Both the position numbers and the translations under genes were made by a program. From contig NJBH01000005.1 in assembly GCA_005223125.1 (NCBI GenBank), positions 32,001 to 96,000 on the forward strand: DNA of 64,000 nt, written 5' to 3'. Below, piece by piece: positions 5,797-58,612 of this stretch. The first letter of the stretch is position 1. Every line of letters begins with the position of its first letter. Source of the DNA: Promethearchaeota archaeon Loki_b32. Lineage in GTDB: Archaea; Asgardarchaeota; Lokiarchaeia; Sigyniarchaeales; SOKP01. The notes below the pieces were generated by a model. The model worked only from the letters and a program-made list of their open reading frames with translations. It did not search any database and had not been told where the DNA came from.

Positions 5797-6942
5797 ATGC
5801 AAGAAGTAGGTGATTCTTTAGTTTCAGTTCTTGTTGTAGATAGAGAGGGATTGGTTGTTGATATATTAACAATAGATTCTGATAAATCGGATGAAAAAAA
5901 GTTTATTGGAGCTTTTAGTTCTTTAGTTGAATTGGTACTAAAAAAATTGACTCAAGATTTTGATCTTGGAACTTTTGGTGCCGGGACATTTGATACAGAT
6001 AAATACCGATTTATTTTTTGTGAGTCTGGATCTAGCCATGTTTTAGTTTCCATTCTCAATCATACGACGTTAGTTGATGACGTATTTCCATATACTTATT
6101 TAACTGCTGACAAAGTAGCGAGGATTATAGATGGAGAATTACCAGTTAGCCCTGTGATTCCTAAAATAAAAAGAGATACTGAACTTGAAAAAGTAAAGAG
6201 AAAAATGGAATACTATCAAAGCAAACCTCATTCACAAGAATATGTTTATAAACTTTCTCTAATCGGAGATGGAGGCGTTGGTAAAACTAGCATGGCACAA
6301 AGATACGTTCATGGAATATTTAAAGCAGATTACAAAGCAACAATTGGTACATATATTTCTAAGAAAGAATGCAAATTTAAAGAATTGAATACTTTTGTAA
6401 GATTTATGATATGGGATTTAGCAGGACAAAGTCAATTTGAACGATTATGGCCAGATTATTTGACAGATTCCCGTGCAGGAATCATAGTTTTTGATATAAC
6501 AAACCAAGAATCATTTGACCATGTAAAGATGTGGTATGATATTATCAAACGAGTCGCATTACCTAATATTATATTAATTCTTGTAGGAAATAAAGTGGAT
6601 CTAAATACATCCAGAATTATTTCTACAGAACAAGCTTTAGAATTAGCTAAGGAATTAGGAATCTATTATATGGAGACCTCAACAAAAACAAATGAAAATA
6701 TTGATAACGTGTTTAAGTGGATTGCACTTCAAATCATTAATTTGAATATCGAAGAAGTAAAAGATACATTATTTGATAAACAAATCGAAGAGGGCTCAAA
6801 ATTTGTTATTTCAAGCCCACAATTAACAATTTTGAATCAATATTTCGCTAAGCAACTAGACTTCTGTATAGGAAAAAGTGATACTAAAGAAATCATTAAA
6901 TACTTAGACATTTTAAAAGCAATTGGAAAAAATAAATTATAA
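5797..6942 (+). CDS. Roadblock-domain / Rab-like small GTPase fusion (may start at ATT 5749)
   Basis: N-terminal roadblock-like SVLVVDREGLVV; G1 GDGGVGKT, YKATIG, G3 WDLAGQ, G4 GNKVD, G5 ETSTK; no CaaX. Confidence 0.9.
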   Translation: MQEVGDSLVSVLVVDREGLVVDILTIDSDKSDEKKFIGAFSSLVELVLKKLTQDFDLGTFGAGTFDTDKYRFIFCESGSSHVLVSILNHTTLVDDVFPYTYLTADKVARIIDGELPVSPVIPKIKRDTELEKVKRKMEYYQSKPHSQEYVYKLSLIGDGGVGKTSMAQRYVHGIFKADYKATIGTYISKKECKFKELNTFVRFMIWDLAGQSQFERLWPDYLTDSRAGIIVFDITNQESFDHVKMWYDIIKRVALPNIILILVGNKVDLNTSRIISTEQALELAKELGIYYMETSTKTNENIDNVFKWIALQIINLNIEEVKDTLFDKQIEEGSKFVISSPQLTILNQYFAKQLDFCIGKSDTKEIIKYLDILKAIGKNKL

Positions 6943-10294: not shown

Positions 10295-13200
10295 TTGAAG
10301 GAATCGAAAATAAATAAGGAAATTAACGTAGCAATAAAATCAGAAGAAAATTTTCTCGCAATTCTTAATTCTTTAACCGATCCTATGCATATTATTGATA
10401 GAGAATACAATATCCAATTTTTAAATTCAGCTATGGTACTATGGCTTAATAAATTGAACATAAATTCTGATCTTGTTGGTAAAACTCTTTTTGAAGAGTT
10501 TCCTCTCTTAGAATATGATAAAATCCATAACGAATATGACAAAGTCTTCAAAACTGGCGAACTTTTGATAACAAAAGAAGCAACTAAGCTAACTAAAGGT
10601 ATTATATTTACTGAGACTCTAAAAATTCCAGTTAAAAGTAATGGTAAAGTTGAGCAAGTTATAACGATTATGCGAGACATTACGGAACAAAAGAAAGCAG
10701 AAGAAAAATTAAAAGCATCTGAAGAGAAGTATAAGAATATTATCAGTAACCTTATGGATATAATAATAATATTAGATCTTAAAGGCAATTTCTTATATGT
10801 CAGTCCACAAATCTATGATATTTCTGGATTTAAACAAAAAGAGATAATCGGAAAAAATGGTTTCAAGTTGATGCACCCAGATGATATCAATAAGACTACT
10901 AGTGTATTAAAGGAGGCTATAGAACAGAAGAAGAGAATTTATATCGAATATCGCACATTACATAAGCAAGGTCATTATATAGAGGTATCTGCAAGTGGTA
11001 GGATTGTAAATATAGAAGGAGAAGATCGAATTTTCGCAGTAGTAAGAGACATTTCTGAGCATAAAATTTCTGAGCAAAAATTAAAAGAATCAGAAGAAAA
11101 ATATCGTCTAATTACTGAAAATGCAAATGATATGATTGCTATTTTAAATAACAAAATGGAGTATGAATATGTAAATGAAGCTGCTTTTCTAAATATTATG
11201 GGTAGAACTAAAGATGATTTAATTGGATATAATTCTTTACATTGGGCTCATCCTGATGATATTGAAAAATCTATAAATGCTTTTAAAGATGGTTGGGAGA
11301 AAGGAGAAGCATTTATCCAAGCAAGATTCAGAGATACACAAGAAAAATATCATTCGCTCGAAGTAAGAGGAAAATTAATTATTGATCATAAAGGAGAAAA
11401 AAAGGTTTTAATAGTCTCACGAGATATTTCAGAAAGAAAGGAGGCCGAACAGAAATTAAAAGATTCTGAAGAAAAATATCGATATTTAATTGAAAATTCT
11501 ATTGAGGGTGTTTGGGTAATAGATTCTGAAGCAAAAACAATCCTAGTTAATCCTAGTATGGCACATATTTTAGGTTATACGGTAGAAGAAATGATTGGAA
11601 AATCTTTATTCTCATTTACAAATGAAGAACAGGTAAAAATTACCAAAAATCATTTAGAGAAAAGAAAGAAAGGCATCTCTGAAGAAAGAGACGCCTACTT
11701 GCTTCATAAAGACGGAAATAAGGTTTATCTGAGAATAAGAGCAACCCCTATTTTCGACAGTGAAGGTAATTATGAAGGAACATATGCTTTTTTGGCAGAT
11801 ATAACCCAAAAAATGTTAGCGGAACAGAAATTGAAAGAATCGGAAGAAAGATTTAGAACATTATTTGAAATCGCTCCCGCTTCTATTTCTGTTTTAGATT
11901 TAGATGGGAATATTATCTTAAGCAACCAGAAATTTTGTAATCTTCATGGTGTGAAAAACCCAGAACTATTGGAAGGAAGGAAAATTTTAGAATTCATAGC
12001 AGAAAAAGATTGGTCAAAATTAAAGGAAGCTATGAAAAAGTCTTTTGAAGGATTACCCAGAGGACTTAATCAATATACAATGCTTAAAGATAATGGAACA
12101 GAATTTCCTGCCGAAGCAATTAGTTCAGGTATTAAAAATAAAAAAGGTGAAATTATAGGTCTTATAGGAGTTGCTCAGGATATTACAGAACGTAATATTG
12201 CTGAGCAAAAACTAAAGGAATCTGAAGAAAAATATTCACATCTTTTCAAGAGTTCTCCGTACTCAATCCTAATTGCTAATATGAATGGAAAAGTAATTGA
12301 TTGTAACTTTTTAGAAGATAAAATAACAGGATATTTAAAAGAGGAAATAATCGGTAAAAACATGCTTGATATACCAATGTTTCCGAAAGAGTATCTTCCT
12401 ATAGTGATTAAAGATTTCAAAACTCTACTAAAAGGAAGAATTCCCAAACCTAATGAAATACAGATTCGAAAGAAAAATGGAACTCTGGTGTGGGTACAGC
12501 CGACTGCTTCTATTTTTAAAATCGAAGGTGAATCTTACATGTAGATTATAATGCAAGAGATTACTGAAAGAAAGAATTCTGAAGAAAAATTAAAAGAATC
12601 CGAAGAAAAATTCAGAACTATTGCAGAACAATCTTTCTTAGGTATTGCTATTCTACAAAATGATACTGTTAGTTATGTTAATGAGCAACTTGCTTATAAA
12701 TTTGGTTATACCACAGAGGAAATTATGAAGTGGGGAGTAGGAGGTTTTATGAAAGTTATATATCCCGATGATAGAAAAATGGTTGCTGAGCAAGCTAAGA
12801 AAAAGCAATCGGGTGAACCAGATACTGTTAATCAATATCAATTCAGAGGAATAAAAAAGAATGGAAATATAATATGGTTAGAAATATTTTCAAAAACAAT
12901 TAATTATAAGGGAAAACCAGCTGATTTTGTTACAATTCACGATATAACTGAAGAGAAGCTAGCTGGACAAAAATTAAAAGAATCTGAAGAAAATTTCAGA
13001 ACTATTGCTGAACAAGCTTTTATGGGAACTTTAATAATTCAAAATGATCAAGTGACGTATGTGAATGATGCTTTGCTTCAAATCTTTGAGTTCTCGCAAG
13101 ATGAAGTTAATTATTGGAAGAAAGATAATCTACTCAAACTAATTCATCCTGAAGATTTACATTATCTAAGAGAATATCGCGAACAATTACGAAGTGGTGA

Positions 13201-14075
13201 ATCTGATATAAAGCCGTATTATTCTTATAGAGTTTTCACCAAATATGGTAAGATAAAATGGATCGATCAGTTCTCAAGACCTATTATTTATCGAGGGAAA
13301 CCAGCAGAATTAGTCACCATCATGGATATTACTGAGAAAAAAAAAAGCCGAACAAGAATTAGTAAAACTCAACAGCTTAAAATCGGAGCTTCTTAGAAGA
13401 ACTTCCCATGAGTTAAAAACACCTCTTGTCTCAATTAAGGGATTTTCTGATCTTTTATTAACTGTACATAAAGAAAAATTAGATGATTATGTGTTAGCTA
13501 CTATTCATGAAATAAGACTCGGATGTGAAAGGCTAGAAAGTCTTATCCAAGATATTTTAAAAACATCTGAATTAGAAGCTGAATCAGTTGAGTTAAAAAA
13601 ATCAGAAGAAGATTTATCATTTTTAATAAAATTGTGTATAAAGGAATTACAAGGCTTAATAAGGTTAAGAAATCATGAAACCAGCATAGATATACATGAT
13701 AAGTTAATAACTAGCTTTGAACCAGGCCAAATCCATCTTGTAATTAGCAATTTACTTAATAATGCAATAAAATATACTCCACCTAATGGTAAAATTGAAG
13801 TTAAATCTGCTATAACAGATAATTCTATTTTAATTTCGATCCATGATAATGGAATCGGAATAACCAATGAAGAAAAAAAAAGGTTATTCTCCCAATTTGG
13901 AAAAATTGAACGATACGGACAAGGGCTTGACATAATATCCGATGGTTCTGGTTTAGGATTATATATAACCAAAAGAATTGTAGAATTGCATGGTGGAAAG
14001 ATATGGGTTAAATCTAAAGGAAGAAACAAAGGTTCTACCTTCAATTTTACTCTTCCATTAATTATTGAGAAATAA
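10295..14075 (+). pseudogene. Multi-PAS histidine kinase interrupted by an in-frame TAG (12542-12544) and a +1 frameshift in an A10 run (13337-13346)
   Basis: ORFs 10295..12544 and 12551..13396 are in frame (ESYM*IIMQEITERK). Removing one A gives EKKKAEQELVKLNSLKSELLRRTSHELKTP, joining the HATPase ORF 13491..14075. Confidence 0.88.
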
Positions 14076-14181
14076 AATAAATAAACAAAATCTCAACATT
14101 TTTGTCTAGAACTCTTAAAACTTTTAAACCTTCCATTTACTATATAGAGTTAAATTATATTAATTATAATTGTGAATTCAT

Positions 14182-15636
14182 ATGGTCGAGTTTAATCCAC
14201 AAATTTTAAGTAGAGAGGAATTAAGGGCAATTTCTGCAGGTGTGAATAAAGAAGAATTACTCTTTTTTGATAAACATTGTATAAATGTCTATTATGAACA
14301 AAATGTATTAATTGAAGCGAAAGAACCAGGTTCTCCATGGGTTGTAGTAAGAGATTTTAAAACAGGAGAACAAACTGAAATTTTAGATTGTACATCTCAA
14401 AATTGGACGTTAGCATTAGGTTTTGCTAACCCTGATATTAATTATGCCGTGGCAGAACAGATGAAAAGATTGACTCATATTAAATCGGATGTAGTATCTC
14501 CATCCCGAGCTAAGTTTATAAATAAATTGTCTGAATTGTCTCCAGGTAGATTGAAGGGAGGAAGAGTTCATATAAATAATGAAGGGGGTAGTTTAGCAAT
14601 CGAAGCTGCCATAAAGCTTGCGTTAGTAGCATCTAGAGATGGAGATCATTTTTTAACTTTTAGAGGGGGATATCATGGGAATACATTAGCTATGTTAGCA
14701 GCTTCTCAACCTTTCCATCCAATAACAAGATTTAGAACTTTCGGGGTAGATTTTTTTACACGAGTTCCACAACCATATTGTTATCGATGTCTATGGAACT
14801 ATAAAAACGGTTTATATGGTCAAAAAGATCCTCAGTGCAATATGGAGTGTTTCGATTTAGTTAAAGAATATTTGATGAATTTGACAACAAGAAAGCTCGC
14901 GGGAGTAATTTTAGAACCTTATCAAGCAGCAGGCGGTCATATTCCCTTTCCACCCGATTTTCTTATAAAATTAAGAGAAACATGTGAAGAAGAAAAGATT
15001 TTTATTATATTTGATGAATCTCAGACAGCTGTTTGGAGAACTGGGAGATATTTTACTCTAACTGAAAAATATGAGAAAGAAAATGGATTAGATGTATCTC
15101 CTGATATGATGTGCTTTACTAAAGCTCTTGGGGGAGGTTTCCCATTGGGTGCGATGATAGCCTCTACCAAAATTAAGAAAAGATTTACAGCCGCAGAAGA
15201 TCACACAACCTTTTGTAATACACCGATTGGTTGTACAGCGGGTCTTGCTTCTTTTATGGTTATAGAAAAAGCAAAAATTGGAGAAAATTGCGAAGAAAGA
15301 GGGAAGCAGATAACTAGACGATTAAAAGAACTCCAAGAAAAATATGATATGATAGGTGATATTCGAGGTCCAGGCTTGTTTATAGGAATTGAGCTAGTAA
15401 AAGATCAAAAGTCAAGAGAACCTTTTACAGAACTTATGGAAGATATGCTTCATGAGGGTGTAAGACAGAATATATTCTTTGGACCTAGTATGCCTTATCT
15501 TAGTGGAACAGGTAAATTACTAATGCGAAATTTAATAAAAATAAAGCCCCCATTAAATATTACTGAAAAAGATGCTGAATTTATCTGTGATAAATTTGAA
15601 AGCGTACTAAAAGCATCGATTAATAATTTGAAATAG
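14182..15636 (+). CDS. Class III PLP-dependent aminotransferase (GabT/ArgD-like)
   Basis: GGYHGNT, ILEPYQAAGG, IFDESQT, FTKALGGGFP (PLP Lys), IRGPGLFIGIELV. Confidence 0.92.
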   Translation: MVEFNPQILSREELRAISAGVNKEELLFFDKHCINVYYEQNVLIEAKEPGSPWVVVRDFKTGEQTEILDCTSQNWTLALGFANPDINYAVAEQMKRLTHIKSDVVSPSRAKFINKLSELSPGRLKGGRVHINNEGGSLAIEAAIKLALVASRDGDHFLTFRGGYHGNTLAMLAASQPFHPITRFRTFGVDFFTRVPQPYCYRCLWNYKNGLYGQKDPQCNMECFDLVKEYLMNLTTRKLAGVILEPYQAAGGHIPFPPDFLIKLRETCEEEKIFIIFDESQTAVWRTGRYFTLTEKYEKENGLDVSPDMMCFTKALGGGFPLGAMIASTKIKKRFTAAEDHTTFCNTPIGCTAGLASFMVIEKAKIGENCEERGKQITRRLKELQEKYDMIGDIRGPGLFIGIELVKDQKSREPFTELMEDMLHEGVRQNIFFGPSMPYLSGTGKLLMRNLIKIKPPLNITEKDAEFICDKFESVLKASINNLK

Positions 15637-39047: not shown

Positions 39048-41957
39048 ATGAAATCAACAGAAAAGAAACTTAGAGAATCTGAGGAAAGATTCAAAGCATT
39101 ATTTAAGATAAGTCCAGTTCCGACTTATGCTTGGCAAAAAGTAGGAGTATCGTTTAAATTGATTGATTATAATAATGCTGCTGATATTATTACGCAAGGA
39201 AACGTGCAAAATTATTTAGGAATTAAAGCTTCTGAAATGTACAGAGAACGTTTGGATATTTTAGAAGATATTAATAGTTGTTTTGATAAAAAAACTACTG
39301 TTGTTCGAGAAATGAAATATTTTTTTTCAAGTTTAAAAGAAGAAAAAGAGCTATTAGTGAAATATGCTTTTTTACCTCCAGATTTAGTCTTAGTTCATAC
39401 AGAAGATATCACAGCCCGAAAGAGAGCGGAGGAAAAAATTCAATATCAAGCTAAACTTGTTGAAGACGTTTCAGATGCAATTGTTTCCAGTGATTTAGAC
39501 TTTAACATTGTATCTTGGAATAAAGCAGCAGAATCTATATATGGATGGAAAGCTGAAGAAGTAATTGGGAAAAATATTAAGGATACAATTCCCGTAGAAT
39601 ACCCCTATGATGATCAAGAAGCTGTTCTAAAACAATTTTTTGAAGAAGGATTTTGGAAAGGAGAAGTAATTCAACCACAGAAAGATGGTACACCTATTAA
39701 TATCTTAACCTCAGTTTCATTAATTAAAGATATCAAAGGAAATCAAGTAGGTGCTGTAGCAATTAACCGAGACATTTCTGAGCGCAAATTAGTAGAGCAA
39801 AAATTAAAAGAATCTGAATCTAAGTTTAGAAGTATCTTTGAAGCTATTCCAGATTTATATTTTTTACTATCTGAAGATACAACAATATTAGATTTTCGGG
39901 GGAAGAAACAAAATTTATATGTTCAACCCGAAGAGTTTATGTGGAAAAAAGTTGTAGACCTCTTACCACCTCATATCGGAGAACAGACAATGAATTTGAT
40001 CAAGAAAACCATTATGACGAAGCAACCACAAAATTTAGAATATGAATTACTTATACAAAATAAAATTCATTATTTTGAAGGAAGATATTTTTATCTTTCT
40101 AAGAATAGAGTTTCTTGTTTTGTTCGAGATATTACGGAAAGAAAAAAGATAGAAAAAGAAATTTCTGATTTAGCAAAGTTCCCTTCAGAAAATCCAAATC
40201 CCGTATTGAGAGTGGATAAAAAAAAGATTCTTTATATCAATCAGTCGGGTAGAAATTTGTTTGATACAACTGAAGGTAGTAAGATTCCAATTCTATTAGA
40301 AGAAATAATTGTTGAAGCATTTGACGATAATACTACTAAAGTTTTTGAAATTGAAGTTGATGATAAAATATATTCATTTGATATAGCACCGATACAACAA
40401 GAAGGATATGCTAATATTTATGGACAGGATATAACAGAGAGAAAGAAATCAGAGATCGGCCTCAATATCGAGAAACAATTTACAGAAGATATATTAAATT
40501 CTTCACTGGATACTATCTTCGTTTTTGAACCAGAAACAGGTAAAGCACTTAGATGGAATAAAGTTTTTAATGAAATGACTGGTTATTCTGATGAAGAAAT
40601 TTCTTCAATGAAAGCCCCAGATTCATATTATAATGAAGAAGATTTAAAAGTTTCTTCAGAAGCAATAAAAAGATTAAAAGAGGAAGGAAAAACTACACTT
40701 GAAATTTCATTAATTACTAAGGATGGCAGGAGAATTCCATATGAGTATAAGGCAACGGTACTTAAAGACCCCCACGGGAAATTTTCAATTGTTTCTATTG
40801 GAAGAGATATGACTGAAAGAAAGGAAGTAGAGCAAAAATTAAAAGAATCTGAAATTATATTTAGAGACTTATATGAAGAAGCGCCTAATGCGTATTTCTC
40901 AATAGGGCCAGAAAAGTCAATAATTCGAACCAATAAAGCAGCGGAAAGACTTTTAGGCTATACAAAAGAAGAATTTTCAAAGTTGAAAGTCTATGAATTA
41001 TATACTGATACAAAATATGGATTAGAGAAAGCTGAAAAAGTGTTTAAACAATTCATGAATGGAGAGGCTATTAAAGATATTGAACTTCAAATGAAACACA
41101 AAAATGGAAACACCGTGTGGGTAAGCTTATCTGTTAAACCCATTTTCGATTCAGATGGAAGAGTTATTGAATCTCGTTCTATGGTTTTAGACATTACAGA
41201 ACGTAAAAATACAGAGGAAGCTTTAAAAAAATCAGAAAAGAAATATAAGGAGGCCTATGACAAGGCTAATTTCTATAAAGATCTTTTTACTCACGATATG
41301 AATAACATCCTACAAATTATAAATTCTTCAGCAGAAATAATTGGATTCCAGCTAGGTGATTCTGAAATGTCAATGTATATTGAAAATATGACTAAAATGA
41401 TTAAAAACCAAGTTGATAGAGGTTCCAAATTAATTTCCAACGTTCGCACTTTAACCGAACTTGATGAACAGGAGGAAATTTCAACAAAACAAGTAAATAT
41501 CTCCAAATTCTTAAATTCTTCAATAAATTTTGTTAAAAAAGCATATATTGGTAAAAATATATCCATTTTTGCAGAAAAACTTGATCAAAAATATTACACT
41601 AATGCTAATGAACTTCTTCAAGACGTCTTTGACAACATTTTAATAAATAGTATAAAGTATAATGAAAACTTAGAAATAGAAATATCTATAAAAATTTCTA
41701 AGCAAATTATGGATGGGAAAAATTATTTCAAATTAGAATTGAGTGATAATGGGATCGGTGTTTCTGATGATAGAAAAGATGTTATATTTCAACGGGGTAA
41801 TAGAGAACTTAAAGGAACTAAGGGAATGGGAATTGGTCTCTCCTTAGTAAAAAAAATTCTTGAAATTTTTGAAGGTAAAATTTGGGTTGAAGATAAAATT
41901 AAAGGAGACTATACAAAAGGGAGTAATTTTATTGTATTATTGCCCGAAGTAAACTGA
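39048..41957 (+). CDS. Multi-PAS sensor histidine kinase
   Basis: Multiple PAS units, H-box THDMNN, NILINSIKY, DNGIG, GMGIGL. Confidence 0.93.
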   Translation: MKSTEKKLRESEERFKALFKISPVPTYAWQKVGVSFKLIDYNNAADIITQGNVQNYLGIKASEMYRERLDILEDINSCFDKKTTVVREMKYFFSSLKEEKELLVKYAFLPPDLVLVHTEDITARKRAEEKIQYQAKLVEDVSDAIVSSDLDFNIVSWNKAAESIYGWKAEEVIGKNIKDTIPVEYPYDDQEAVLKQFFEEGFWKGEVIQPQKDGTPINILTSVSLIKDIKGNQVGAVAINRDISERKLVEQKLKESESKFRSIFEAIPDLYFLLSEDTTILDFRGKKQNLYVQPEEFMWKKVVDLLPPHIGEQTMNLIKKTIMTKQPQNLEYELLIQNKIHYFEGRYFYLSKNRVSCFVRDITERKKIEKEISDLAKFPSENPNPVLRVDKKKILYINQSGRNLFDTTEGSKIPILLEEIIVEAFDDNTTKVFEIEVDDKIYSFDIAPIQQEGYANIYGQDITERKKSEIGLNIEKQFTEDILNSSLDTIFVFEPETGKALRWNKVFNEMTGYSDEEISSMKAPDSYYNEEDLKVSSEAIKRLKEEGKTTLEISLITKDGRRIPYEYKATVLKDPHGKFSIVSIGRDMTERKEVEQKLKESEIIFRDLYEEAPNAYFSIGPEKSIIRTNKAAERLLGYTKEEFSKLKVYELYTDTKYGLEKAEKVFKQFMNGEAIKDIELQMKHKNGNTVWVSLSVKPIFDSDGRVIESRSMVLDITERKNTEEALKKSEKKYKEAYDKANFYKDLFTHDMNNILQIINSSAEIIGFQLGDSEMSMYIENMTKMIKNQVDRGSKLISNVRTLTELDEQEEISTKQVNISKFLNSSINFVKKAYIGKNISIFAEKLDQKYYTNANELLQDVFDNILINSIKYNENLEIEISIKISKQIMDGKNYFKLELSDNGIGVSDDRKDVIFQRGNRELKGTKGMGIGLSLVKKILEIFEGKIWVEDKIKGDYTKGSNFIVLLPEVN

Positions 41958-42011: not shown

Positions 42012-42581
42012 TTATCCTATCCAATCTTTTCTATAAATAGCAAATTGATGCATATCAACATATTCTCCATCAACATATAGATGATCTTTAAAATGTGCTT
42101 CTTGTTTGAATCCTAATTTTTCGGCAGCTCGAAGTGATCTTTTGTTAGGAATGTAAACCCCCGCATAAATTTTATGGAAATTTAATTCTTTAAATCCATA
42201 ATTTATTAATAATTTTGCAGCTTCACCAACAATTCCCTTACCCCAATAATCTGGTTCTCCTATCGTCGCGGAAATAAAAGCATTACGATTTAGCCAATCG
42301 ATACTAAAAAAGCCAATACTGCCTATTGGGCATTTATCTTCTTTATGGTAAATTGTAAAGAATATATATTCCTTAAGACCTCGTCCCGGAGATGGTTCAA
42401 ACCATTTTTTTATCTGTTCGGGAGTGCTAGGCATTGTGTGTCTAGCATAATGGCGTACTTGTGGGTTATTATTCCATTTGCAATATAAAGGAATCCATTT
42501 AGAATTTTGAGCAACTAAATCTATCCTTTCTCCCTCAATAAAGGGAAAAACTTCAATTTTTTCTTGTTCTTCTTCTGGCAA
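42012..42581 (-). CDS. RimJ/RimL GNAT N-acetyltransferase (array copy 5)
   Basis: YWGKGIV, ELNFHKI, NKRSLRAAEKLGF. Confidence 0.9.
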   Translation of the reverse strand: MPEEEQEKIEVFPFIEGERIDLVAQNSKWIPLYCKWNNNPQVRHYARHTMPSTPEQIKKWFEPSPGRGLKEYIFFTIYHKEDKCPIGSIGFFSIDWLNRNAFISATIGEPDYWGKGIVGEAAKLLINYGFKELNFHKIYAGVYIPNKRSLRAAEKLGFKQEAHFKDHLYVDGEYVDMHQFAIYRKDWIG

Positions 42582-42718
42582 CTTGATACATCTAGGGTTT
42601 TTATGTAAAATATTAGAATTGCTATGTTTATTTAATTAAAATACAAGATTAAATTTTACTTTTTGTTCATGGTCGAGTTAATAATATGGCAAGAATAATA
42701 AAGAGAATTTTATTGATC

Positions 42719-43288
42719 CTAGTCGATTTCTTTCTTTCTTTTCATCCAATCCTCCTTTAAAATCCCATAGGTTTTAACATTATAATATTTTCCATCAACA
42801 TACATCTCATCTTTTCGGATTCCATTAAACTTAAAACCTACTTTTTCTGCAACACTCCATGAGCCAATATTTTCAACAGCAGCTCCACCTTGCAATTTGT
42901 GAAGATTTAATTCGTTAAAAGCATATTCAACAAGCATTTCAGTAGTTTCAGTTGCGATATTTTGCCCCCAATATTCAGGTTCTCCAATAGAAAGAAAGGC
43001 ATTTGCCCATCCACTAACCCAATCTATCCATGCTAATCCACATGAACCAATTGGTTTATTATCTTTATTATGCCAAATCTCAAAAACTATAAAATTATGC
43101 ACTCTTCCTTTTCGAGGTTCAAACCATCTCTTAATATCTTCAAGTCTTATAGGCATCTCCCATCGAGCAAACACACGCACTTTTGGATTATTCATCCACT
43201 TCGCATACAAATCGATGTGCTCTGAATTTTGAACAGCCAAACAAATGGTCTCTCCCTCAATAAAAACTGGAACGTCTTTATCTTTCAT
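42719..43288 (-). CDS. RimJ/RimL GNAT N-acetyltransferase (array copy 4)
   Basis: YWGQNIA, ELNLHKL, NIGSWSVAEKVGF. Confidence 0.9.
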   Translation of the reverse strand: MKDKDVPVFIEGETICLAVQNSEHIDLYAKWMNNPKVRVFARWEMPIRLEDIKRWFEPRKGRVHNFIVFEIWHNKDNKPIGSCGLAWIDWVSGWANAFLSIGEPEYWGQNIATETTEMLVEYAFNELNLHKLQGGAAVENIGSWSVAEKVGFKFNGIRKDEMYVDGKYYNVKTYGILKEDWMKRKKEID

Positions 43289-43324
43289 TTAATTAATTAA
43301 AACCCCATTATATAGATTATTTTA

Positions 43325-43897
43325 CTAAATTTTTTTAGAATTGAGCCAATCTTTTTTAAATATTGCAAGCTTCACTTCATCAACATACTCTCCTTCAATA
43401 TATACCTGTTCTTTCAAGGTTGCTTCAAACTTTAAGCCAACCTTTTCCGCAGTCCTTAAAGATCTTTTATTTGGTGCATTTATACATGCATGAATCTTAT
43501 GGAAATTTAGTTCTTCAAATCCATAATCCACTAATAATTTGGCAGCTTCTGGTCCTATACCTTGCCCCCAATATTCAGGTTCTCCAATACTCGTAAAAAT
43601 ATTTGCATTTCGGTCTAACCAATTAATACTATCAAAGCCTGCTGTCCCAATAGGTTTTTTATCCTTTTTATGCCAGATTTCAAAAGTTACATCTCTTTTT
43701 CCACTTTCTTTCTGTTGCTCAAACCATTTTTTCACCTCTTCAAGATTCCACGGAAACATATTTCTAGCATATCGGCGTACTTCAGGATCATTACCCCACT
43801 TAGTATACAGATTCACATGTTCTAAGTTAATTGGACCCAAATCAATAATTTCTCCTTCAATGAAAGGCATGACTTTTTTTGTTTCCTTATCTTCCAA
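43325..43897 (-). CDS. RimJ/RimL GNAT N-acetyltransferase (array copy 3)
   Basis: YWGQGIG, ELNFHKI, NKRSLRTAEKVGL. Confidence 0.9.
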   Translation of the reverse strand: MEDKETKKVMPFIEGEIIDLGPINLEHVNLYTKWGNDPEVRRYARNMFPWNLEEVKKWFEQQKESGKRDVTFEIWHKKDKKPIGTAGFDSINWLDRNANIFTSIGEPEYWGQGIGPEAAKLLVDYGFEELNFHKIHACINAPNKRSLRTAEKVGLKFEATLKEQVYIEGEYVDEVKLAIFKKDWLNSKKI

Positions 43898-43946
43898 TTT
43901 TATCTATTCCACCTTTTTACATTAAAATTCCATAAATTAATAAAAT

Positions 43947-44549
43947 TCACATAGAGTTTTTTCTTTTTAGCCAATCTTCCTTTAATAAGCTATGTGTCTT
44001 GACATCTACATATTTTCCATCAACATACATCTCATCTTTTCGGATTCCATTAAACTTAAAACCCATTTTCTCAGCTACAGTCCAGGAACCAATATTCTCT
44101 ACAGCAGCTCCCCCCTGTAATTTATTTAGATTCAATTCATTAAATGCATATTCAATAAGCAATTCAGTAGCTTCAGTGGCTATATTTTTATTCCAATATT
44201 CAGGTTCTCCAATGAAAAGAAATGCATTTGCCCACCCATTAATCCAATCTATATGTCCTAATCCTAAATTTCCAATAGCTTTTTTATCTTTCTTATGCCA
44301 AATATCTAAAGATATATGATCCTTGAATTCTTCAACTTTAGATTCAAACCGTTGCTTTTGATCTTCAAGGGTTCTTGGTACCACATTTCTGGCATATTTT
44401 CTTACACGAGGATGATTTTTCCAACGAACATATTGTTTAAGCAATTTAGAATTTCGCACGCATAGATCAATATTCTTCCCTTTAATAAAAGGAAAAGGTT
44501 CAATTTCTTCAGTTTCTGGATTTTCTTCTGATTTTTCTTCTTGTCCCAT
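43947..44549 (-). CDS. RimJ/RimL GNAT N-acetyltransferase (array copy 2)
   Basis: YWNKNIA, ELNLNKL, NIGSWTVAEKMGF. Confidence 0.9.
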   Translation of the reverse strand: MGQEEKSEENPETEEIEPFPFIKGKNIDLCVRNSKLLKQYVRWKNHPRVRKYARNVVPRTLEDQKQRFESKVEEFKDHISLDIWHKKDKKAIGNLGLGHIDWINGWANAFLFIGEPEYWNKNIATEATELLIEYAFNELNLNKLQGGAAVENIGSWTVAEKMGFKFNGIRKDEMYVDGKYVDVKTHSLLKEDWLKRKNSM

Positions 44550-44581
44550 GAATCAAACCTCTTCTTCAGGATTTATAATCT

Positions 44582-45145
44582 TCATTGTAATTTCATCCAA
44601 TCTTCTTTAAAAATTGAATACTCTAAAGCATCAATGTGTTCACCATCAATGTAGACTTCTTGTTTAAGTGTTATTTCATGTGTAAGCCCGATTTTTTCTG
44701 CCACTCTTAAAGAAGCTTTATTTGGAGAAAACATTCTAGCGGTAATTTTATGTAAATTCAACTCTTTGAAACTATATTCTAAAACCAGTTTGCCTGCCTC
44801 AGTTCCGTTGTTTTGACCCCAATAATTCGGTTCGATAAGATAAAATATATGTGCATTACGAGTAAGCCATTGAATCCGAATAAGCCCAACAAATCCTATT
44901 GGTTTCTCATCCTTTTTATGCCATATTTCAAAAAAAATTTCATTTTTTACAGGTTCTTCTTTTGGTTCAAATAATTTTTTAACTTCTTCAATAGTTTGAG
45001 GCATATTGTATCTGGCGTATTTTCGTAATTGTGGATCATTCATCCATTTAGTATAAAGATGAATGTGATCCATATTTACTGGACAAAGTGAAACGTTTTC
45101 TCCTTCTATAAATGGAAAAACTTTATCTTCTTTAACTTCAGACAT
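44582..45145 (-). CDS. RimJ/RimL GNAT N-acetyltransferase (array copy 1)
   Basis: YWGQNNG, ELNLHKI, NKASLRVAEKIGL. Confidence 0.9.
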   Translation of the reverse strand: MSEVKEDKVFPFIEGENVSLCPVNMDHIHLYTKWMNDPQLRKYARYNMPQTIEEVKKLFEPKEEPVKNEIFFEIWHKKDEKPIGFVGLIRIQWLTRNAHIFYLIEPNYWGQNNGTEAGKLVLEYSFKELNLHKITARMFSPNKASLRVAEKIGLTHEITLKQEVYIDGEHIDALEYSIFKEDWMKLQ

Positions 45146-48110: not shown

Positions 48111-48323
48111 TTAGAGTATTTTCATTGCCAAGTCCATATCATTGAGAGTTAATTTCTTCCTTCCGGCGTGTCGTGTCATTTCAAGAGCTTTATTTGTCAT
48201 GACTTTAGCTAATTTTTCTAAATAATCAATTAAGGCATCAACAGCATCTCGAGCCACCATCTCAGCGCCATTGTCTTTCATTAACTTTCGTACAGGAGAC
48301 CAGGCAAAAACTTTTTTGGCCAT
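48111..48323 (-). CDS. Archaeal histone (70 aa)
   Basis: MAKKVFAWSPVRKLMK...VARDA...HAGRKKL...D. SD GGAGG precedes ATG 48323, so the 22-aa N-terminal extension in the ORF track is probably not real. Confidence 0.93.
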   Translation of the reverse strand: MAKKVFAWSPVRKLMKDNGAEMVARDAVDALIDYLEKLAKVMTNKALEMTRHAGRKKLTLNDMDLAMKIL

Positions 48324-48667
48324 TTTATTATTCCTCCACTTTTTAATTGTTTTGGTTAATTTGCTCGTTTTAAGAGGTTCATCAACCAATATTTTTTTTC
48401 TGAAGTTTTTAAAATTTAACTTTAAACTTCTTTAACTAATATACATTAGCCAAATATATAAAGATTACGGTAAATTTTCGGTAGAGTATGTTTCGGTTAA
48501 TAAATTCATTAATAATTTCATTGCGATGTCTGAGAAGAACACCGTCAGATATGGATCTGAGCTTTTAGATCTAAGATTTTTTTTGATTTTAAATTTTTTA
48601 ATCGAAGAAGGTTAAATGGTTTAAATTTTATACCATTATTATAATTCAAATAGGTTTATTATTAATT

Positions 48668-49267: not shown

Positions 49268-50836
49268 TCAATATTTATCATCTATATGGGATAGCATCAC
49301 TTTCAATTGATCGAATATATCCAGCCTGAAATCAGTCCCAATTCTAAAGAATAAGAGATCAACTAATTTTTTGTCAAGGTGATCATCAACATTTAGTTGT
49401 TCAATTATCTCTGACCAATTACTACTCTCAGATACCCTGATTCCAATTAAAAGTACAGTATTTTCCTTTGCATTTTCAATCATTTTAATAATCATTTCTT
49501 TCCAGTTTGATACTACTTTCAGTTGGCCATGTGTATCGAAAATACAAAATATTCCGTCAGTACTGGAAATATCCTCAATAGCAGAATATTCATGTTGTTT
49601 GACAATCATCCCATTTGTATACTGATAGACTTGTTCATCGTCATAATCTCTAATCATTGATTTCTCTCCTAACTTCCTCATATTAGTTATGATCTGTAAT
49701 CCAGGACTCCATTGTGAACTTTCTGTTATAAAAGATAATGTGAAAACTATCTTTTTTTCTAAGATAGATTTAATAAGTTCTAATAAAACGTCACTACGTC
49801 TTTTGTCTTCAATTTCCTTACTCCTCATGACATAATGATATGAAATTAGATTAAATGCATCCTCTACATTGCTCCCATTTAACGCACTAGTCTCAATATA
49901 ACTTAATTTAATTTTCTCGCGTTCTGATAACATGTTAGCTAATTTAGCACCTTCCTGATAAAAAACTCTTCTCTCTTCAACTAAATCAGTTTTATTCCCG
50001 ACGATTATAATTGGAATATCTTCTCCGGGTGTAAAAAGTTTTAATTCCTCATACCAATTGGTAATATTATCGAATGATTCACGTTTAGTTAAATCAAATA
50101 CAATAAATCCCGCTTGGGTTCCTGAATAATAGACTTTTCTAAATCTTTTAAAATATTTTTGAGCTCCCAAGTCGTATAAAGTGACGCCAATCTGGTTTCC
50201 AAAAAACTCAAATTCATGAGATAAGATATTGATTCCAATTGTTGCTCTATAGTCAGTATTGTATCTTTTTTCTACGAATCGTCGAATTATTGAAGTCTTT
50301 CCAACTTCATGATCTCCCAAAATAACGAATTTAAATCTGTATTCACCTTTAATACCCATAGGCATCTGATACAACTGATTTTTTAATCGTTCGACGTTCC
50401 CTGCTTCATATTCAAAGTTTGGAATTGATACTTGAATTAAAGCATCTTCATCAGCAGTGAGAATTTGAGCTGTCTTTTCTGTTAAAAAAAAACCATAAGG
50501 CGTAATTTTTTCAATTGAAGCCATGCTTTCTAAAACCAAACTCAGGATTCGTTCCTCATCAACAGAGATGAATAAAAGGCGATGATCCTCTGTATCAAAA
50601 CTCGCATTCCCAAATTTCTGAAAGTCAAATTCACTTCGCATTCTTTCTAAGATTGGATTGATAATTGATGTCAAAACTGAAACGAGTTCTATATCAATAT
50701 CTTTCCTTTTCTCTCCCGCAATGACTAATCCTTCAGAATCAGAAACAATTACTGATTCTACTTCTTGGTTAGCCTCTAAAAACTTGTTGAAAAGTTCTCT
50801 AAAGAGTTTATTTTTTTGGATAGGCAAATATTTCAC
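49268..50836 (-). CDS. Roadblock - Rab-like GTPase - degenerate GTPase-like domain protein (paralog B)
   Basis: VIVSDSEGLVIA; GDHEVGKTS, YRATIG, YDLGAQ, GNKTD, ETSAL; C-terminal TDGIFCIFD...VLLIGIRV. Confidence 0.88.
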   Translation of the reverse strand: MKYLPIQKNKLFRELFNKFLEANQEVESVIVSDSEGLVIAGEKRKDIDIELVSVLTSIINPILERMRSEFDFQKFGNASFDTEDHRLLFISVDEERILSLVLESMASIEKITPYGFFLTEKTAQILTADEDALIQVSIPNFEYEAGNVERLKNQLYQMPMGIKGEYRFKFVILGDHEVGKTSIIRRFVEKRYNTDYRATIGINILSHEFEFFGNQIGVTLYDLGAQKYFKRFRKVYYSGTQAGFIVFDLTKRESFDNITNWYEELKLFTPGEDIPIIIVGNKTDLVEERRVFYQEGAKLANMLSEREKIKLSYIETSALNGSNVEDAFNLISYHYVMRSKEIEDKRRSDVLLELIKSILEKKIVFTLSFITESSQWSPGLQIITNMRKLGEKSMIRDYDDEQVYQYTNGMIVKQHEYSAIEDISSTDGIFCIFDTHGQLKVVSNWKEMIIKMIENAKENTVLLIGIRVSESSNWSEIIEQLNVDDHLDKKLVDLLFFRIGTDFRLDIFDQLKVMLSHIDDKY

Positions 50837-50977
50837 TCCACGTAATAATAATTATAATTTGATCTATTTCTTATCAAATATCTTATTTATTTTTGAGATT
50901 TTTATTATTATTGATTATTAACTATAAATGATAATCTTTTGACCAATTGTTTTCATGATTTGTAATAGTAGAAGATC

Positions 50978-52564
50978 TTAAAGATACTTAATGGTATTTA
51001 GCATAACTTTGAGTTGATCATATATTTCTAATCGATATTCGAGTCCTAATTTGAAAAACAATAGTGATACCATTTTTTGTTCAAGTAGTTCATTTACATC
51101 AAATTCCTCCATTATCGCCGACCAATCGCTTTTATCTGAAACTCTAATACCAATCAATACAACCTTATTCTCATTGATTTCACTGATAATTTTAATAACA
51201 ACATCTTTCCACTTTGGGTCAATATGTTCTTTTTGACGGGCATCAAAAATGCAAAATACTCCATCAGAACCACCAACATCAAAATTATTGTAGAGAAAAC
51301 TTTTTAATTCCACGCCGTTTGAAAATTTATATAATTTTTCTTCTCTATCATCTTTGACTTTTTCACATTCACTTAAATTATTGATCTCTGAAAGAATTTG
51401 CAATCCAGGACTCCAGAATTCATTTTCAGAGATGATTGTCAGAGTTAATAACGAATCAAATTCTTCACCAATTACTTTCCTTTCCTTCAAAATTGAATTG
51501 AGTTCCTCTATTAAATCATTTTTAACAATTTCCTCTTCGTCTGCTTTGCTTTTTGATATATAATGATATGCTATCAAAGTAAAGGCATCCTCAACATTTT
51601 CGCCTGAAAGGGCTGATGTTTCGATGTATGATATCTTAATATTAGGGTTCTGGGATAATTCATTTACCATATTTACTCCATCTTGGTATTCAATTACTCT
51701 TTGATCGCTCAAATCTGTTTTATTTCCAATAACTATAATTGGAATTTCTCTTCCGCCAATGAAATTTTCTAATTCTCCATACCATTCCTTTACGTTTTCA
51801 AATGATTCTCTATTCGTTAGGTCAAAAACTATAAAAGCTGCTTGGCTTCCCAAATAGTACGTTTGACGGAAGCGTTTGAAGTATTTTTGAGCCCCTACAT
51901 CCCACAAACTATAAATGATGCTATTTCCAAAGAATTCAATAGAATGTGCTAAAATATTAAGCCCAATTGTTGCTCTATAGTCATGAGAAAATTTACTTTC
52001 CACAAACCTTCTCACTAATGAAGTCTTACCCACTTCATGATTCCCAATAATTACGAATTTAAATCGATATACTCCACCCTCATCTAATCTCATTTGATAA
52101 ATTTGATTTTTTACTCGATCAAAATGAGCAGTTTCATCCGTTTCATATTCGAAATTAGGGATTGTAAGTTGAATCATATCACCTTCTTCAGCATGTAAGA
52201 TTTGTACAGATTTTTCTGCTAAAAGATAGGCATATGGACTAGCTTTGTCAACAGATGCTAAACTATTTAATACAACACTAAGAGTTCTGCTTTCGTCCAA
52301 AGAAATAAACAGCAGTCTATATATCTCGGTATCGAAACTAGCAGTCCCGAATTTTTTGAACATAAATTCATCACGAATTCTTTTAACAATAGGATTAATT
52401 ATTGAAGTTAATACTGAGACAATTTCCATATCAACTTCACTTCTCTTTTCACCGGCCATAACTAAACCTTGTTTATCGCTTACTATTACTGCTTCTACAT
52501 CAGGATTAATTTCTAGGAATTGGTTGAATAACTCGGTAAAAAGCTTTTGTCTATTTATTGACAT
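50978..52564 (-). CDS. Roadblock - Rab-like GTPase - degenerate GTPase-like domain protein (paralog A)
   Basis: VIVSDKQGLVMA; GNHEVGKTS, YRATIG, WDVGAQ, GNKTD, ETSAL; C-terminal SDGVFCIFD...VVLIGIRV. Confidence 0.88.
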   Translation of the reverse strand: MSINRQKLFTELFNQFLEINPDVEAVIVSDKQGLVMAGEKRSEVDMEIVSVLTSIINPIVKRIRDEFMFKKFGTASFDTEIYRLLFISLDESRTLSVVLNSLASVDKASPYAYLLAEKSVQILHAEEGDMIQLTIPNFEYETDETAHFDRVKNQIYQMRLDEGGVYRFKFVIIGNHEVGKTSLVRRFVESKFSHDYRATIGLNILAHSIEFFGNSIIYSLWDVGAQKYFKRFRQTYYLGSQAAFIVFDLTNRESFENVKEWYGELENFIGGREIPIIVIGNKTDLSDQRVIEYQDGVNMVNELSQNPNIKISYIETSALSGENVEDAFTLIAYHYISKSKADEEEIVKNDLIEELNSILKERKVIGEEFDSLLTLTIISENEFWSPGLQILSEINNLSECEKVKDDREEKLYKFSNGVELKSFLYNNFDVGGSDGVFCIFDARQKEHIDPKWKDVVIKIISEINENKVVLIGIRVSDKSDWSAIMEEFDVNELLEQKMVSLLFFKLGLEYRLEIYDQLKVMLNTIKYL

Positions 52565-52749: not shown

Positions 52750-53334
52750 ATGCCCTCTTGTATAGTATGCCATTTAAATATTGATGAGAACACAGATTCT
52801 CTTTTTAAATGTAATAATGACCATCCTGTTCACAAATACTGCCTCGCGGAATGGTTGATGCATTCTCAGAACTGTCCTTTATGCAGTGATCCTTATCCTC
52901 AAAATGTAATTAATCAATTTAAAGATTATATGGAAAAAAAAGAACAAGAGAAACAAGCAGCACTAGATAAAGAACTACAAAAAGAATCAATGAAAAAAAT
53001 GGAAGAGGTCGCTGGAAAGGCAGTATTTCTTAAATTTATTGAATATATTGAACAAATAATAGAAGAAGAAAAGTATAATGAAGCAATTGATAAACTCTTA
53101 GATTCTTACGATGAAAGTTCCGTTGATGACAGAAATCTCAATATTCTTTTTTTGTTAGGGAAAGCAAATTATCTAAAGGGGCGATTTGATTTAACAATTA
53201 GCTTTTTATTTAAATTAGTTAAAATTAAATTTGATTATCCTGAAGGATTCTTATATTTAGGTAAAGCGTATGAAAAATTAGGTCTTAAAGATAAAGCCCA
53301 ATGGGCTTATGATCGAATCAAAGAAGGAAAATAG
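52750..53334 (+). CDS. RING-H2 finger + coiled coil + TPR protein (putative E3 ligase)
   Basis: CIVC...CNNDHPVHKYC..EW....CPLC; TPR-like LLGKANY.KG and YLGKAYEKLG..DKA. Confidence 0.85.
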   Translation: MPSCIVCHLNIDENTDSLFKCNNDHPVHKYCLAEWLMHSQNCPLCSDPYPQNVINQFKDYMEKKEQEKQAALDKELQKESMKKMEEVAGKAVFLKFIEYIEQIIEEEKYNEAIDKLLDSYDESSVDDRNLNILFLLGKANYLKGRFDLTISFLFKLVKIKFDYPEGFLYLGKAYEKLGLKDKAQWAYDRIKEGK

Positions 53335-56954: not shown

Positions 56955-57224
56955 ATGATCCAAGAAAATGAGTTAATAACATTCATGATTTGTATTGGTG
57001 TACTTATTTTTTTTATTTTGAATTATCAAAAATTAAAAAAACTTTCAGGATATAATTTATTTTTAACATCATTTATTTTATACACATGTGCCTGGTGTTT
57101 TACTGTAATTGAAGGTATTATTTTTGAAGAAGTTTTTAATCTCATTGAACACATATGTTATATAAGTAGTTCGGGAATTATGGTTGCTTGGATTTTAATT
57201 GCTTTTTGGAAGAGAAAAGAATGA
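56955..57224 (+). CDS. Small 3-TM membrane protein
   Basis: Three hydrophobic segments; stop overlaps the next start (ATGA). Confidence 0.8.
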   Translation: MIQENELITFMICIGVLIFFILNYQKLKKLSGYNLFLTSFILYTCAWCFTVIEGIIFEEVFNLIEHICYISSSGIMVAWILIAFWKRKE

Positions 57225-58612
57225 ATCTGATAGGAATTCTTGATTTATTTACCCTTTTGTTTACTATTTTAGTGTTTTCGATTATTTTAATAAGATGGAA
57301 ACATCAATTTTCTTTACATTCCAAAGTATTTTTAATTTTTTCATTAAGTGCAATTTTATTTTATTATTTGAGTAATTTTTTAGAATGGTCAGGTATAAGT
57401 GATATTCTTATTGATATTGAAGATTATATAGCAATTTTAGTTCCATTATTATGGTTTTTCTTTTTATATTCGTTCTTCCAAATGTTATCAGGACAAGAAT
57501 TAAAAGCTTCGGAGAAAAAATTTAGGGTTATAGCTGTACAATCTTCAATGGGCATAATTATTATACAAAATAGAAAATTTAAATACCTGAATCCAGCTAT
57601 ATCAAAAATTATTGGTTATTCTATTGAAGAATTGTTAAATTGGAACGAAATGGACATCGCTAGTGTCATTCCCAAAGAAGATTTAATATTTATGATGGAG
57701 TTGTTTAAAAAAGGGAAGGAAGGAGAAATAAATTTTACTCCTAACTCATCATTTAGAACTATTAATAAGAAAGGGGAAGTAAAATGGTTAGAAAACCTTG
57801 TGAGTATTATCTCGTACGAGAATAAACCTGCAAATTTAGTTTGCGTAATTGATATTACAGATAAGAAAAGAGCTGAAGAACTTATTGTTGAAGAAAATAA
57901 GAGGTTATTGGAACTCAGCAAAATGAGAGAGGATATCATTACACGAGTTTCACATGAACTTAAGACACCTATTACAGCTATGTATGGAGCTACTCAAATG
58001 TTACTGAACCAATTTAGAGAGGAAATGAATACAGAAATTTTGGAATTCACAGAGATTTCTCATAGAGGAGCTCTCCGTTTAAAAAAATTAGTAGACAATT
58101 TAGTGGATGCTACAAAGTTACAAACTGGTAAACTTGAACTAAACTTACAAAATGAAGATATTGTTAATTCAATAAAAGAATGTATAGAAGAGATGAGTTA
58201 TCTAGTCAATAATCGTAATCTAACTTTAACATTCGAACCTTCAAATGATATATTTCTTTTAATAGATAAATATAGAATACAACAAGTAATCACTAATATT
58301 CTTTCCAATGCAATTAAAAATACCCCAAAAGGAGGGAAAATTAATATTGTTGTATTTGATAAGAACAAGCATATTGATATCCTGATAAAAGACACAGGAG
58401 TTGGGTTGACAGTTAAAGAACAAGAATTGTTATTTGAGAAATTTGGAAAAATTGAAAGATATGGCATGGATTTAGGCGTAGATATTGAAGGATCTGGTCT
58501 GGGTTTATATATATCTAAAGAGATTGTCGATTTGCATGGTGGACAAATTCTTGTTGAGTCTGAAGGAAGACATAAAGGAGCTACTTTTACAATCAGGTTA
58601 CAAAAAAATTAG
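57221..58612 (+). CDS. Membrane-anchored PAS histidine kinase
   Basis: Three N-terminal TMs, one PAS, SHELKTP, NILSNAIK, DTGVG, GSGLGL. Start taken at ATG 57221. Confidence 0.92.
   Translation: MNLIGILDLFTLLFTILVFSIILIRWKHQFSLHSKVFLIFSLSAILFYYLSNFLEWSGISDILIDIEDYIAILVPLLWFFFLYSFFQMLSGQELKASEKKFRVIAVQSSMGIIIIQNRKFKYLNPAISKIIGYSIEELLNWNEMDIASVIPKEDLIFMMELFKKGKEGEINFTPNSSFRTINKKGEVKWLENLVSIISYENKPANLVCVIDITDKKRAEELIVEENKRLLELSKMREDIITRVSHELKTPITAMYGATQMLLNQFREEMNTEILEFTEISHRGALRLKKLVDNLVDATKLQTGKLELNLQNEDIVNSIKECIEEMSYLVNNRNLTLTFEPSNDIFLLIDKYRIQQVITNILSNAIKNTPKGGKINIVVFDKNKHIDILIKDTGVGLTVKEQELLFEKFGKIERYGMDLGVDIEGSGLGLYISKEIVDLHGGQILVESEGRHKGATFTIRLQKN

Follow-up and report, generated by a model that had tools for sequence, protein, structure and literature searches.

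A tandem pair of roadblock-GTPase proteins from Lokiarchaeia with a predicted C-terminal pseudoGTPase domain

A 64,000-nucleotide stretch of the genome of Promethearchaeota archaeon Loki_b32 (assembly GCA_005223125.1, contig NJBH01000005.1, positions 32,001 to 96,000; the whole stretch is called "the window" below) contains two neighbouring genes, here named A and B, whose products each appear to join a roadblock-like domain, a Rab-like GTPase domain and a C-terminal domain that resembles a small GTPase stripped of its nucleotide-binding motifs. An original prediction, made from the sequence of this stretch, proposed that the two products form a possible Rag-like heterodimer. What is the C-terminal domain, and must A and B act together? 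We conclude that the domain is a predicted pseudoGTPase and, more tentatively, that A and B may form dimers in which neither partner is obligatory. The two open reading frames are adjacent and co-oriented on the minus strand, as the original prediction described (528 and 522 amino acids (aa); coordinates of these and other features are in Table 1), and the two proteins are 55% identical from end to end, with no translational coupling of the genes across the 141-bp gap. The start of gene B is probably the TTG codon at 50827, since a GGAGTGA element sits upstream of it and most orthologues are 519 aa long. Named relatives are mostly "GTP-binding proteins" of Promethearchaeota or Lokiarchaeota and belong to a large Lokiarchaeia family.

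The two GTPase-fold domains

The C-terminal sequence motifs that were quoted in the original prediction are all present, and no family in Pfam or NCBIfam matches this domain. When it was folded alone, the model had a predicted local distance difference test (pLDDT) score of 91.9, the strand order of a G domain, and a switch II that is cut short, with helix 2 missing. All 50 of the Foldseek matches listed are GTPase-containing entries (Rab3B at E 2.6e-6), the top five matches in an exhaustive structure search are Arf-family chains (Z 12.2-13.7; the best non-GTPase scored 10.7), and a second structure comparison gave Z 13.9 both for Arl1 (root-mean-square deviation 2.9, 160 residues aligned) and for the Asgard protein HodArfR1-GDP. 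The preference for Arf-GDP is partly due to the helix that precedes the domain, which is aligned to the Arf N-terminal helix. The family profile of the domain matches Rnd1 (E 2e-4), and a shape search of the ESM Atlas found two Promethearchaeota clusters at TM 0.87-0.93 and all else at or below 0.65; in a separate comparison the nearest named cluster of that atlas was CENP-M (0.89), which we treat as a lead only.

The motif losses are consistent across the family. Among 233 homologues the positions of the GKT residues are occupied by W/F-S/N-P in a P-loop of the form S/T-x4-W-S-P, in which the proline is present in 233/233, the G3 aspartate is mostly N or Q, NKxD is replaced by I-R-V/A-S, and G5 is replaced by F-F-K/R. 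The same losses are present in the most distant relatives, so the domain had become degenerate by the time the family spread. A search of 1.84 billion representatives gave 50 matches, one of them spurious, and revealed no relative whose P-loop is intact; the full-length matches inspected in that search all have the same architecture. The ratio of nonsynonymous to synonymous substitution (dN/dS) is 0.04-0.16 for this domain in both A and B (values for which dS is often close to saturation), and by this measure of the sequences the domain is under purifying selection. Taken together, the model and the alignment support the proposed G fold without GKT and NKxD, and by both the sequence and the fold definitions of a pseudoGTPase they make the domain a candidate for class i (PMC5593906). 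An origin from the protein's own G domain by internal duplication was considered and put aside as not demonstrable (profile-profile probability <1%). Literature searches on pseudoGTPases in Asgard and other archaea, in a collection with few subscription journals, turned up no paper on an archaeal protein of this type, and the three-domain family is apparently undescribed.

The middle domain was correctly called Rab-like, but the original prediction missed that its G3 motif is not canonical. This domain matches Pfam Ras at E about 1e-42, and neither protein has a Pfam match to Gtr1_RagA at E<=1; its best solved relatives in a PDB profile search are Rab14, Rab1 and a Thorarchaeota Rab, and its structure match is Z 28.6 to Rab3C versus 19.4 to LokiRagO and 18.4 to RagD. 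The G1, G2, G4 and G5 residues G174, G179, K180, T199, N281, K282, D284, S317 and A318 are invariant in 233/233 homologues. The G3 motif, on the other hand, is D-x-G-A-Q, with alanine at the position of Ras Gly60 in 223 of the 233, glycine in seven and serine in three, whereas the equivalent glycine is kept in 43 of 46 scored GTPases of the host genome. Because the distant family f4 still has DFGGQ, the glycine-to-alanine change was probably later than the gain of the pseudoGTPase domain, an order that depends on where the tree is rooted. How might this change affect the switch? H-Ras G60A is mainly in inactive state 1 and its intrinsic hydrolysis is strongly impaired (PMC4867591), and since DxGAQ carries the same substitution the middle-domain switch is, by analogy, likely to be damped or dependent on a partner; the neighbouring glycine at the Ala59 position may compensate. 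The original prediction had envisaged a four-G-domain switch with two dead modules, of which the dead modules agree with the present models and the word "switch" is weakened by the absent switch II glycine. C-terminal prenylation cysteines like those of eukaryotic Rab proteins are not present in either protein (A ends in IKYL and B in DDKY).

The roadblock domain and the possible pairing of A and B

The N-terminal roadblock-like domain of the original prediction was recovered in three ways: the B domain matches Pfam Robl_LC7 (E 0.001, under the curated cut-off), the family profile matches the roadblock/LC7 protein 7yh1 in the PDB (E 0.004), and the AlphaFold2 model of full-length A (alignment of 74 sequences, pLDDT 80.6, predicted template-modelling score 0.71) has the full roadblock order a1-b1-b2-a2-b3-b4-b5-a3. 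The first two of these amount to a weak but consistent sequence signal. In the same model a continuous helix runs from the Rab-like domain to the pseudoGTPase domain, and its distal half superposes on the N-terminal helix of Arf-GDP in the structure search. Strand b3 and helix a2 form the dimer surface of solved roadblocks. Across A, B and the single-copy relatives, b3 is 75% conserved, a2 48% and a3 47%, with 13-39% for the remaining segments.

Tentatively, and with some doubt, we prefer the following account of the pair: The N-terminal roadblock would drive self-dimerization of the three-domain protein, and the fused roadblock dimer would be the base on which the Rab-like domain is regulated, much as MglB serves MglA. 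The Rab-like domain, with its invariant G1, G2, G4 and G5, is predicted to bind GTP and Mg, and the DxGAQ switch II would, if H-Ras G60A is a guide, probably make switching or hydrolysis slow or partner-dependent. One long helix would couple this domain to a pseudoGTPase domain that is predicted to have the shape of Arf-GDP, presumably binds no nucleotide, and may act as a binding surface or scaffold. A single gene would suffice for all of this; tandem duplication would have produced A and B, which retained the dimer surface and the G motifs and diverged in their pseudoGTPase scaffolds, and AA, AB and BB dimers with different outputs would probably exist in a non-obligate mix.

How different are the two proteins in the parts that would make contact? 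The roadblock and the G domain each show 65% identity between A and B, the pseudoGTPase domain 44% and the connecting segments 29-50%. Over aa 46-80, the segment predicted to make the dimer, identity is 74%. Along the full length, only four positions tell A from B in both genera that carry the pair (g1 and g12, below), and all four lie outside a2, b3 and the G domain; the two proteins also have the same G motifs. There is thus no sign in them of complementary surfaces or of opposite nucleotide states, and this argues against the likeness to Rag proteins that was originally proposed, as do the N-terminal place of the roadblock and the Rab type of the G domain. A quite different possibility is that A and B are separate homodimers that never mix, and are kept for dosage, for different partners of the pseudoGTPase domain or for different conditions of expression. 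In its favour, the pseudoGTPase domain is the most diverged of the folded domains and yet keeps 77% and 69% identity inside the two clades (against 45% between the A and B clades), dispersed paralogues exist in other genera, and B probably has its own promoter in the genomes where opposite-strand genes part it from A. We nevertheless consider it improbable: the predicted dimer segment is shared by A and B with zero diagnostic changes, and there is no evident barrier to mixing of copies made in the same cell.

Co-folding bears on whether A and B associate at all. The pair A(1-345)+B(4-345) scored 0.55 and the best control 0.00, which is weak support for the A plus B complex that the original prediction anticipated. 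Of 80 solved complexes 58 passed the mark applied, as did two of 110 mismatched pairs, and among these the passes at 0.60 or under comprised seven of the 80 solved complexes and both of the mismatches; the runs had at least 57% contact agreement and a partner pLDDT of at least 69, and the output named no interface. The pass may be caused by likeness to solved roadblock dimers, and since close cousins of a true partner pass too, co-folding cannot separate a heterodimer from a homodimer. Association of A with B through the roadblock domains is possible, given this score and the retention of the pair in g1 (below). Could the protein instead be a monomer whose roadblock folds back onto its G domain, or could the roadblock pair with some other roadblock protein? 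The 40-residue linker could permit contacts in cis, the host genome encodes many other roadblock-like proteins together with four shorter roadblock-GTPases, and there is a Loki Rag-like structure described as monomeric (9m28). Against this, a2 and b3 are the lowest-confidence parts of the A roadblock in the monomer model (pLDDT 57-70) and yet are highly conserved, as an unsatisfied interface might be, and the solved Asgard roadblocks are homodimers (PMC10933270). Lack of self-association thus seems to us rather improbable.

Distribution, gene order and neighbouring genes

If the pair were obligate, A and B should travel together, but do they? Of the 134 genomes in the host's family 124 carry the C-terminal domain, as do the one genome of family f2 (1/1) and all four of f4 (4/4); none of the 14 genomes of f3 gave it with either of two queries, for one of which 8 candidates per genome were scored. 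In 239 genomes of other classes there was no credible C-terminal domain, save in one bin with 9% contamination (G233), where a binning error probably accounts for the pair. Outside the class there were also four weak matches (E 3-9e-4), rejected as probably ordinary GTPases; one was inspected and is Arf-like with its motifs intact. We take the three-domain family to be an invention of Lokiarchaeia, present in three of its families, and not pan-Asgard. It may have originated by addition of a domain to a roadblock-Rab protein; the host genome has four two-domain roadblock-Rab paralogues with related roadblocks. The window itself holds a third roadblock-Rab-like protein (381 aa; 5797-6942, plus strand), which has a related roadblock (E 4e-17), a normal DLAGQ motif and a short C-terminal tail in place of the pseudoGTPase domain.

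At the home locus the order is thiC-thiD-RING/TPR followed by one or two family copies. Synteny is divided with respect to the predicted pair: it is kept in tandem and in identical order in genera g1 and g12 (in most of the g12 genomes), and there is one copy in g2, g4-g8, g10, g11 and g13 (with an extra truncated duplicate in g13 genome G156). Families f2 and f4 have one copy away from this locus. B is present in 47 genomes of g1, of which 42 also have A, directly adjacent in 37 of the 42. Twelve genomes from five genera, 91-100% complete, have only a single match in total; four of the 12 have B only (g1 genomes G056, G060, G081 and G086, 94-99% complete), and there the gene lies directly beside the RING-TPR gene. 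In the tree these B-only genes form the sister group of the B genes from pairs (100/100), which means that the four genomes have lost A; no near-complete g1 genome with A alone was seen. Given the single-copy genera and families and the 12 near-complete single-match genomes, one gene appears to suffice, and for the family as a whole a Rag-like obligate heterodimer is not supported.

Family copy number ranges from one to five. The second copies in g2, g4, g5, g7 and g8 are a separate, dispersed lineage, and there are additional tandem duplications in g2, g6, g11 and g13. The g1 and g12 copies cluster by position (upstream 92/84, downstream 96/96), and approximately unbiased (AU) tests, run under a reduced LG+G4 model, did not reject independent duplications in the two genera (p 0.16 and 0.25); one shared duplication is favoured but not established. 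Multi-gene insertions part A from B in several genomes. For example, a 4.8-kb, four-gene insertion that includes opposite-strand genes is present in G084 and G061 (L044:2480-6003; L045), and co-transcription is therefore not required. A 958-aa A-B fusion in G090 (L103:2016-4889) was discarded as an artefact of a run of Ns in an assembly gap. G048 and G082 encode longer paralogues, of 822-896 aa (L058:3687-6152 and 11526-14213; L077:5600-8284), in which the three domains are extended by a coiled region with TPR-like repeats and the G domain contains a Ser/Asp-rich insert.

Might the proteins still be preferred or obligate partners in g1 and g12, that is, a Rag-like heterodimer with reversed domain order? 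The frequency and adjacency of the pair in g1, the identical order in g12, the separate upstream and downstream clades and the lack of a near-complete A-only g1 genome (all above) favour this, as does the weak co-folding support, and MK-D1 has an operonic Rag-like pair that is a predicted heterodimer (PMC10933270). On the other side stand the near-complete B-only genomes, the lack of A/B-specific residues in a2, b3 and the G domain, the insertions between the two genes, the frequency of duplication in the family at large (with its separate tandem pairs), and the fact that the single shared duplication is no more than favoured. We judge a Rag-like partnership unlikely. We are similarly doubtful of its more particular form, in which an Arf-GDP-shaped archaeal pseudoGTPase is coupled by a helix to a Rab-like domain with an altered switch II and the tandem duplicates make a preferred roadblock heterodimer of four G folds, independently of Rag; if it were true, the single-copy, paired and B-only lineages would record a passage from homodimer to heterodimer and back. 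The account that we prefer, a self-compatible roadblock dimer with non-obligate mixing, has its own difficulties. That two genera have kept the pair (42 of the 47 g1 genomes with B, and most of g12) is equally consistent with a stricter partnership, a single-copy protein could pair with one of the shorter roadblock-GTPases, of which the host genome has four, and the solved Lokiarchaeota Rag-like GTPase that is monomeric by its entry title (9m28) means that roadblock-type GTPase fusions need not oligomerize.

Metatranscriptome contigs from one study span A and B, one of them reaching across the gap; these were not used, as neither transcription nor a common transcript can be read from contigs. 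A promoter and terminator scan at A/B gave a chance-level result with models that are of bacterial type, while the host is archaeal. The divergent RING-TPR gene, 185 bp from A, was found at every home locus examined. A functional link to it was set aside, because thiD and thiC accompany the family almost as regularly and because f2 and f4 do not show the association; its constancy probably reflects regional gene order, and we regard it as context and not as part of the system.

The window and the genome contain several other genes of note. An archaeal histone gene (48111-48389, minus strand; Pfam CBFD_NFYB_HMF, E 9e-11) lies two genes downstream of B, and a histone gene is near the A/B locus in only four of 41 stretches. 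Five tandem paralogues of 187-200 aa (42012-45145, minus strand) look from their sequence, not from a family scan, like GNAT acetyltransferases, and their copy number varies in relatives. Multi-PAS proteins and histidine kinases are encoded at 2412-5624, 10295-12544, 39048-41957 and 57188-58612. Elsewhere in the host genome, a 231-aa open reading frame (G000 C49:110153-110848, minus strand) matches the G-domain profile in swapped order (51-168, then 2-57), like a circularly permuted small GTPase.

Table 1. Features of the A/B locus (window positions)
Feature	Position	Strand	Remarks
Gene A (upstream copy), roadblock - Rab-like GTPase - pseudoGTPase	50978..52564	-	528 aa
A roadblock domain	52196..52552	-	aa 5-123; AlphaFold2 model and profile matches
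A linker with low-confidence helix	52073..52195	-	aa 124-164; AlphaFold2 model
A Rab-like G domain; G1, G2, G4, G5 intact	51545..52072	-	aa 165-340
A variant G3 motif DVGAQ (Ala at Ras Gly60 position)	51887..51901	-	motif alignment
A continuous 41-residue helix linking G domain to predicted pseudoGTPase domain	51473..51595	-	aa 324-364; AlphaFold2 model
A predicted pseudoGTPase domain	50981..51454	-	aa 371-528; modelled fold and motif alignment
A W-S-P replacing G-K-T	51407..51415	-	motif alignment
Intergenic gap A/B, AT-rich	50837..50977	-	141 bp
Gene B (downstream copy), architecture as gene A	49268..50836	-	522 aa (GTG start), probably 519 aa (TTG start at 50827)
B roadblock domain	50459..50815	-	aa 8-126
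B Rab-like G domain	49817..50344	-	aa 165-340
B variant G3 motif DLGAQ	50159..50173	-	motif alignment
B predicted pseudoGTPase domain	49271..49750	-	aa 363-522; fold from alignment to A
B W-S-P	49703..49711	-	motif alignment
Divergent RING-TPR gene	52750..53334	+	185 bp from A; context

Comparison with known systems

The closest described proteins are archaeal. According to Tran et al. 2024 (PMC10933270), 26 of the 74 small GTPases of MK-D1 are roadblock or longin fusions, and one operonic pair among them is predicted to be a heterodimer; lineage-specific domain shuffling of roadblock-GTPase proteins was already known (10.1101/2020.10.19.343400). These Asgard fusions (including 8yl2 LokiRagO and 9m28 LokiRagM) share with A and B the joining of a roadblock to a GTPase in Lokiarchaeia, the roadblock-first order included. 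A and B differ in having a predicted pseudoGTPase domain after the G domain and a DxGAQ motif, neither of which is mentioned in the passages of PMC10933270 consulted, and in having a Rab-like G domain, whereas Rag-like forms make up most of the fusions that the paper discusses.

Eukaryotic Rag/Gtr proteins (PMC8416955) likewise fuse a G domain to a roadblock and occur as two paralogues, which in the case of A and B may also pair through that domain. In A and B, however, the roadblock is N-terminal (aa 5-123 in A) and not C-terminal, the C-terminal domain has a predicted G fold, the middle G domain is of the Rab type with an extra predicted pseudoGTPase domain behind it, the two paralogues are 55% identical with the same G motifs, and genomes with a single copy are common. 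Because domain order and G-domain type differ, A and B are not members of the Rag/Gtr group, and the likeness is at most convergent.

The MglA-MglB system of Myxococcus and Thermus resembles our proposal in that a small GTPase is regulated on a roadblock dimer; MglA and MglB are separate proteins, and in A and B the two parts are fused, and a GTPase-activating or nucleotide-exchange role of the roadblock in A and B would be an analogy. Eukaryotic pseudoGTPases, like the C-terminal domain, have the fold of a small GTPase and G motifs that are degraded, and in p190RhoGAP such domains are placed, as in A and B, behind a GTP-binding G domain. Those proteins have been assayed for lost nucleotide binding, while the A/B domain is archaeal and predicted, and the likeness seen is that of the shared fold. 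EhRabX3 of Entamoeba has two tandem G domains. Like A and B, it contains a GTPase domain that lacks several G motifs (PMC5593906), but it is eukaryotic and without a roadblock, and the resemblance drawn here is one of architecture. Since the three-domain family was found only in three Lokiarchaeia families, apart from the one contaminated bin, it would be a parallel invention and not an ancestor of the eukaryotic proteins. The Ras-type pseudoGTPases that we found described are eukaryotic, and one from Lokiarchaeia would extend the reuse of dead G domains as scaffolds to archaea; the series of one-copy, tandem-pair and B-only lineages would in turn be a natural test of the step from roadblock homodimer to heterodimer that has been proposed for Rag and Ragulator.

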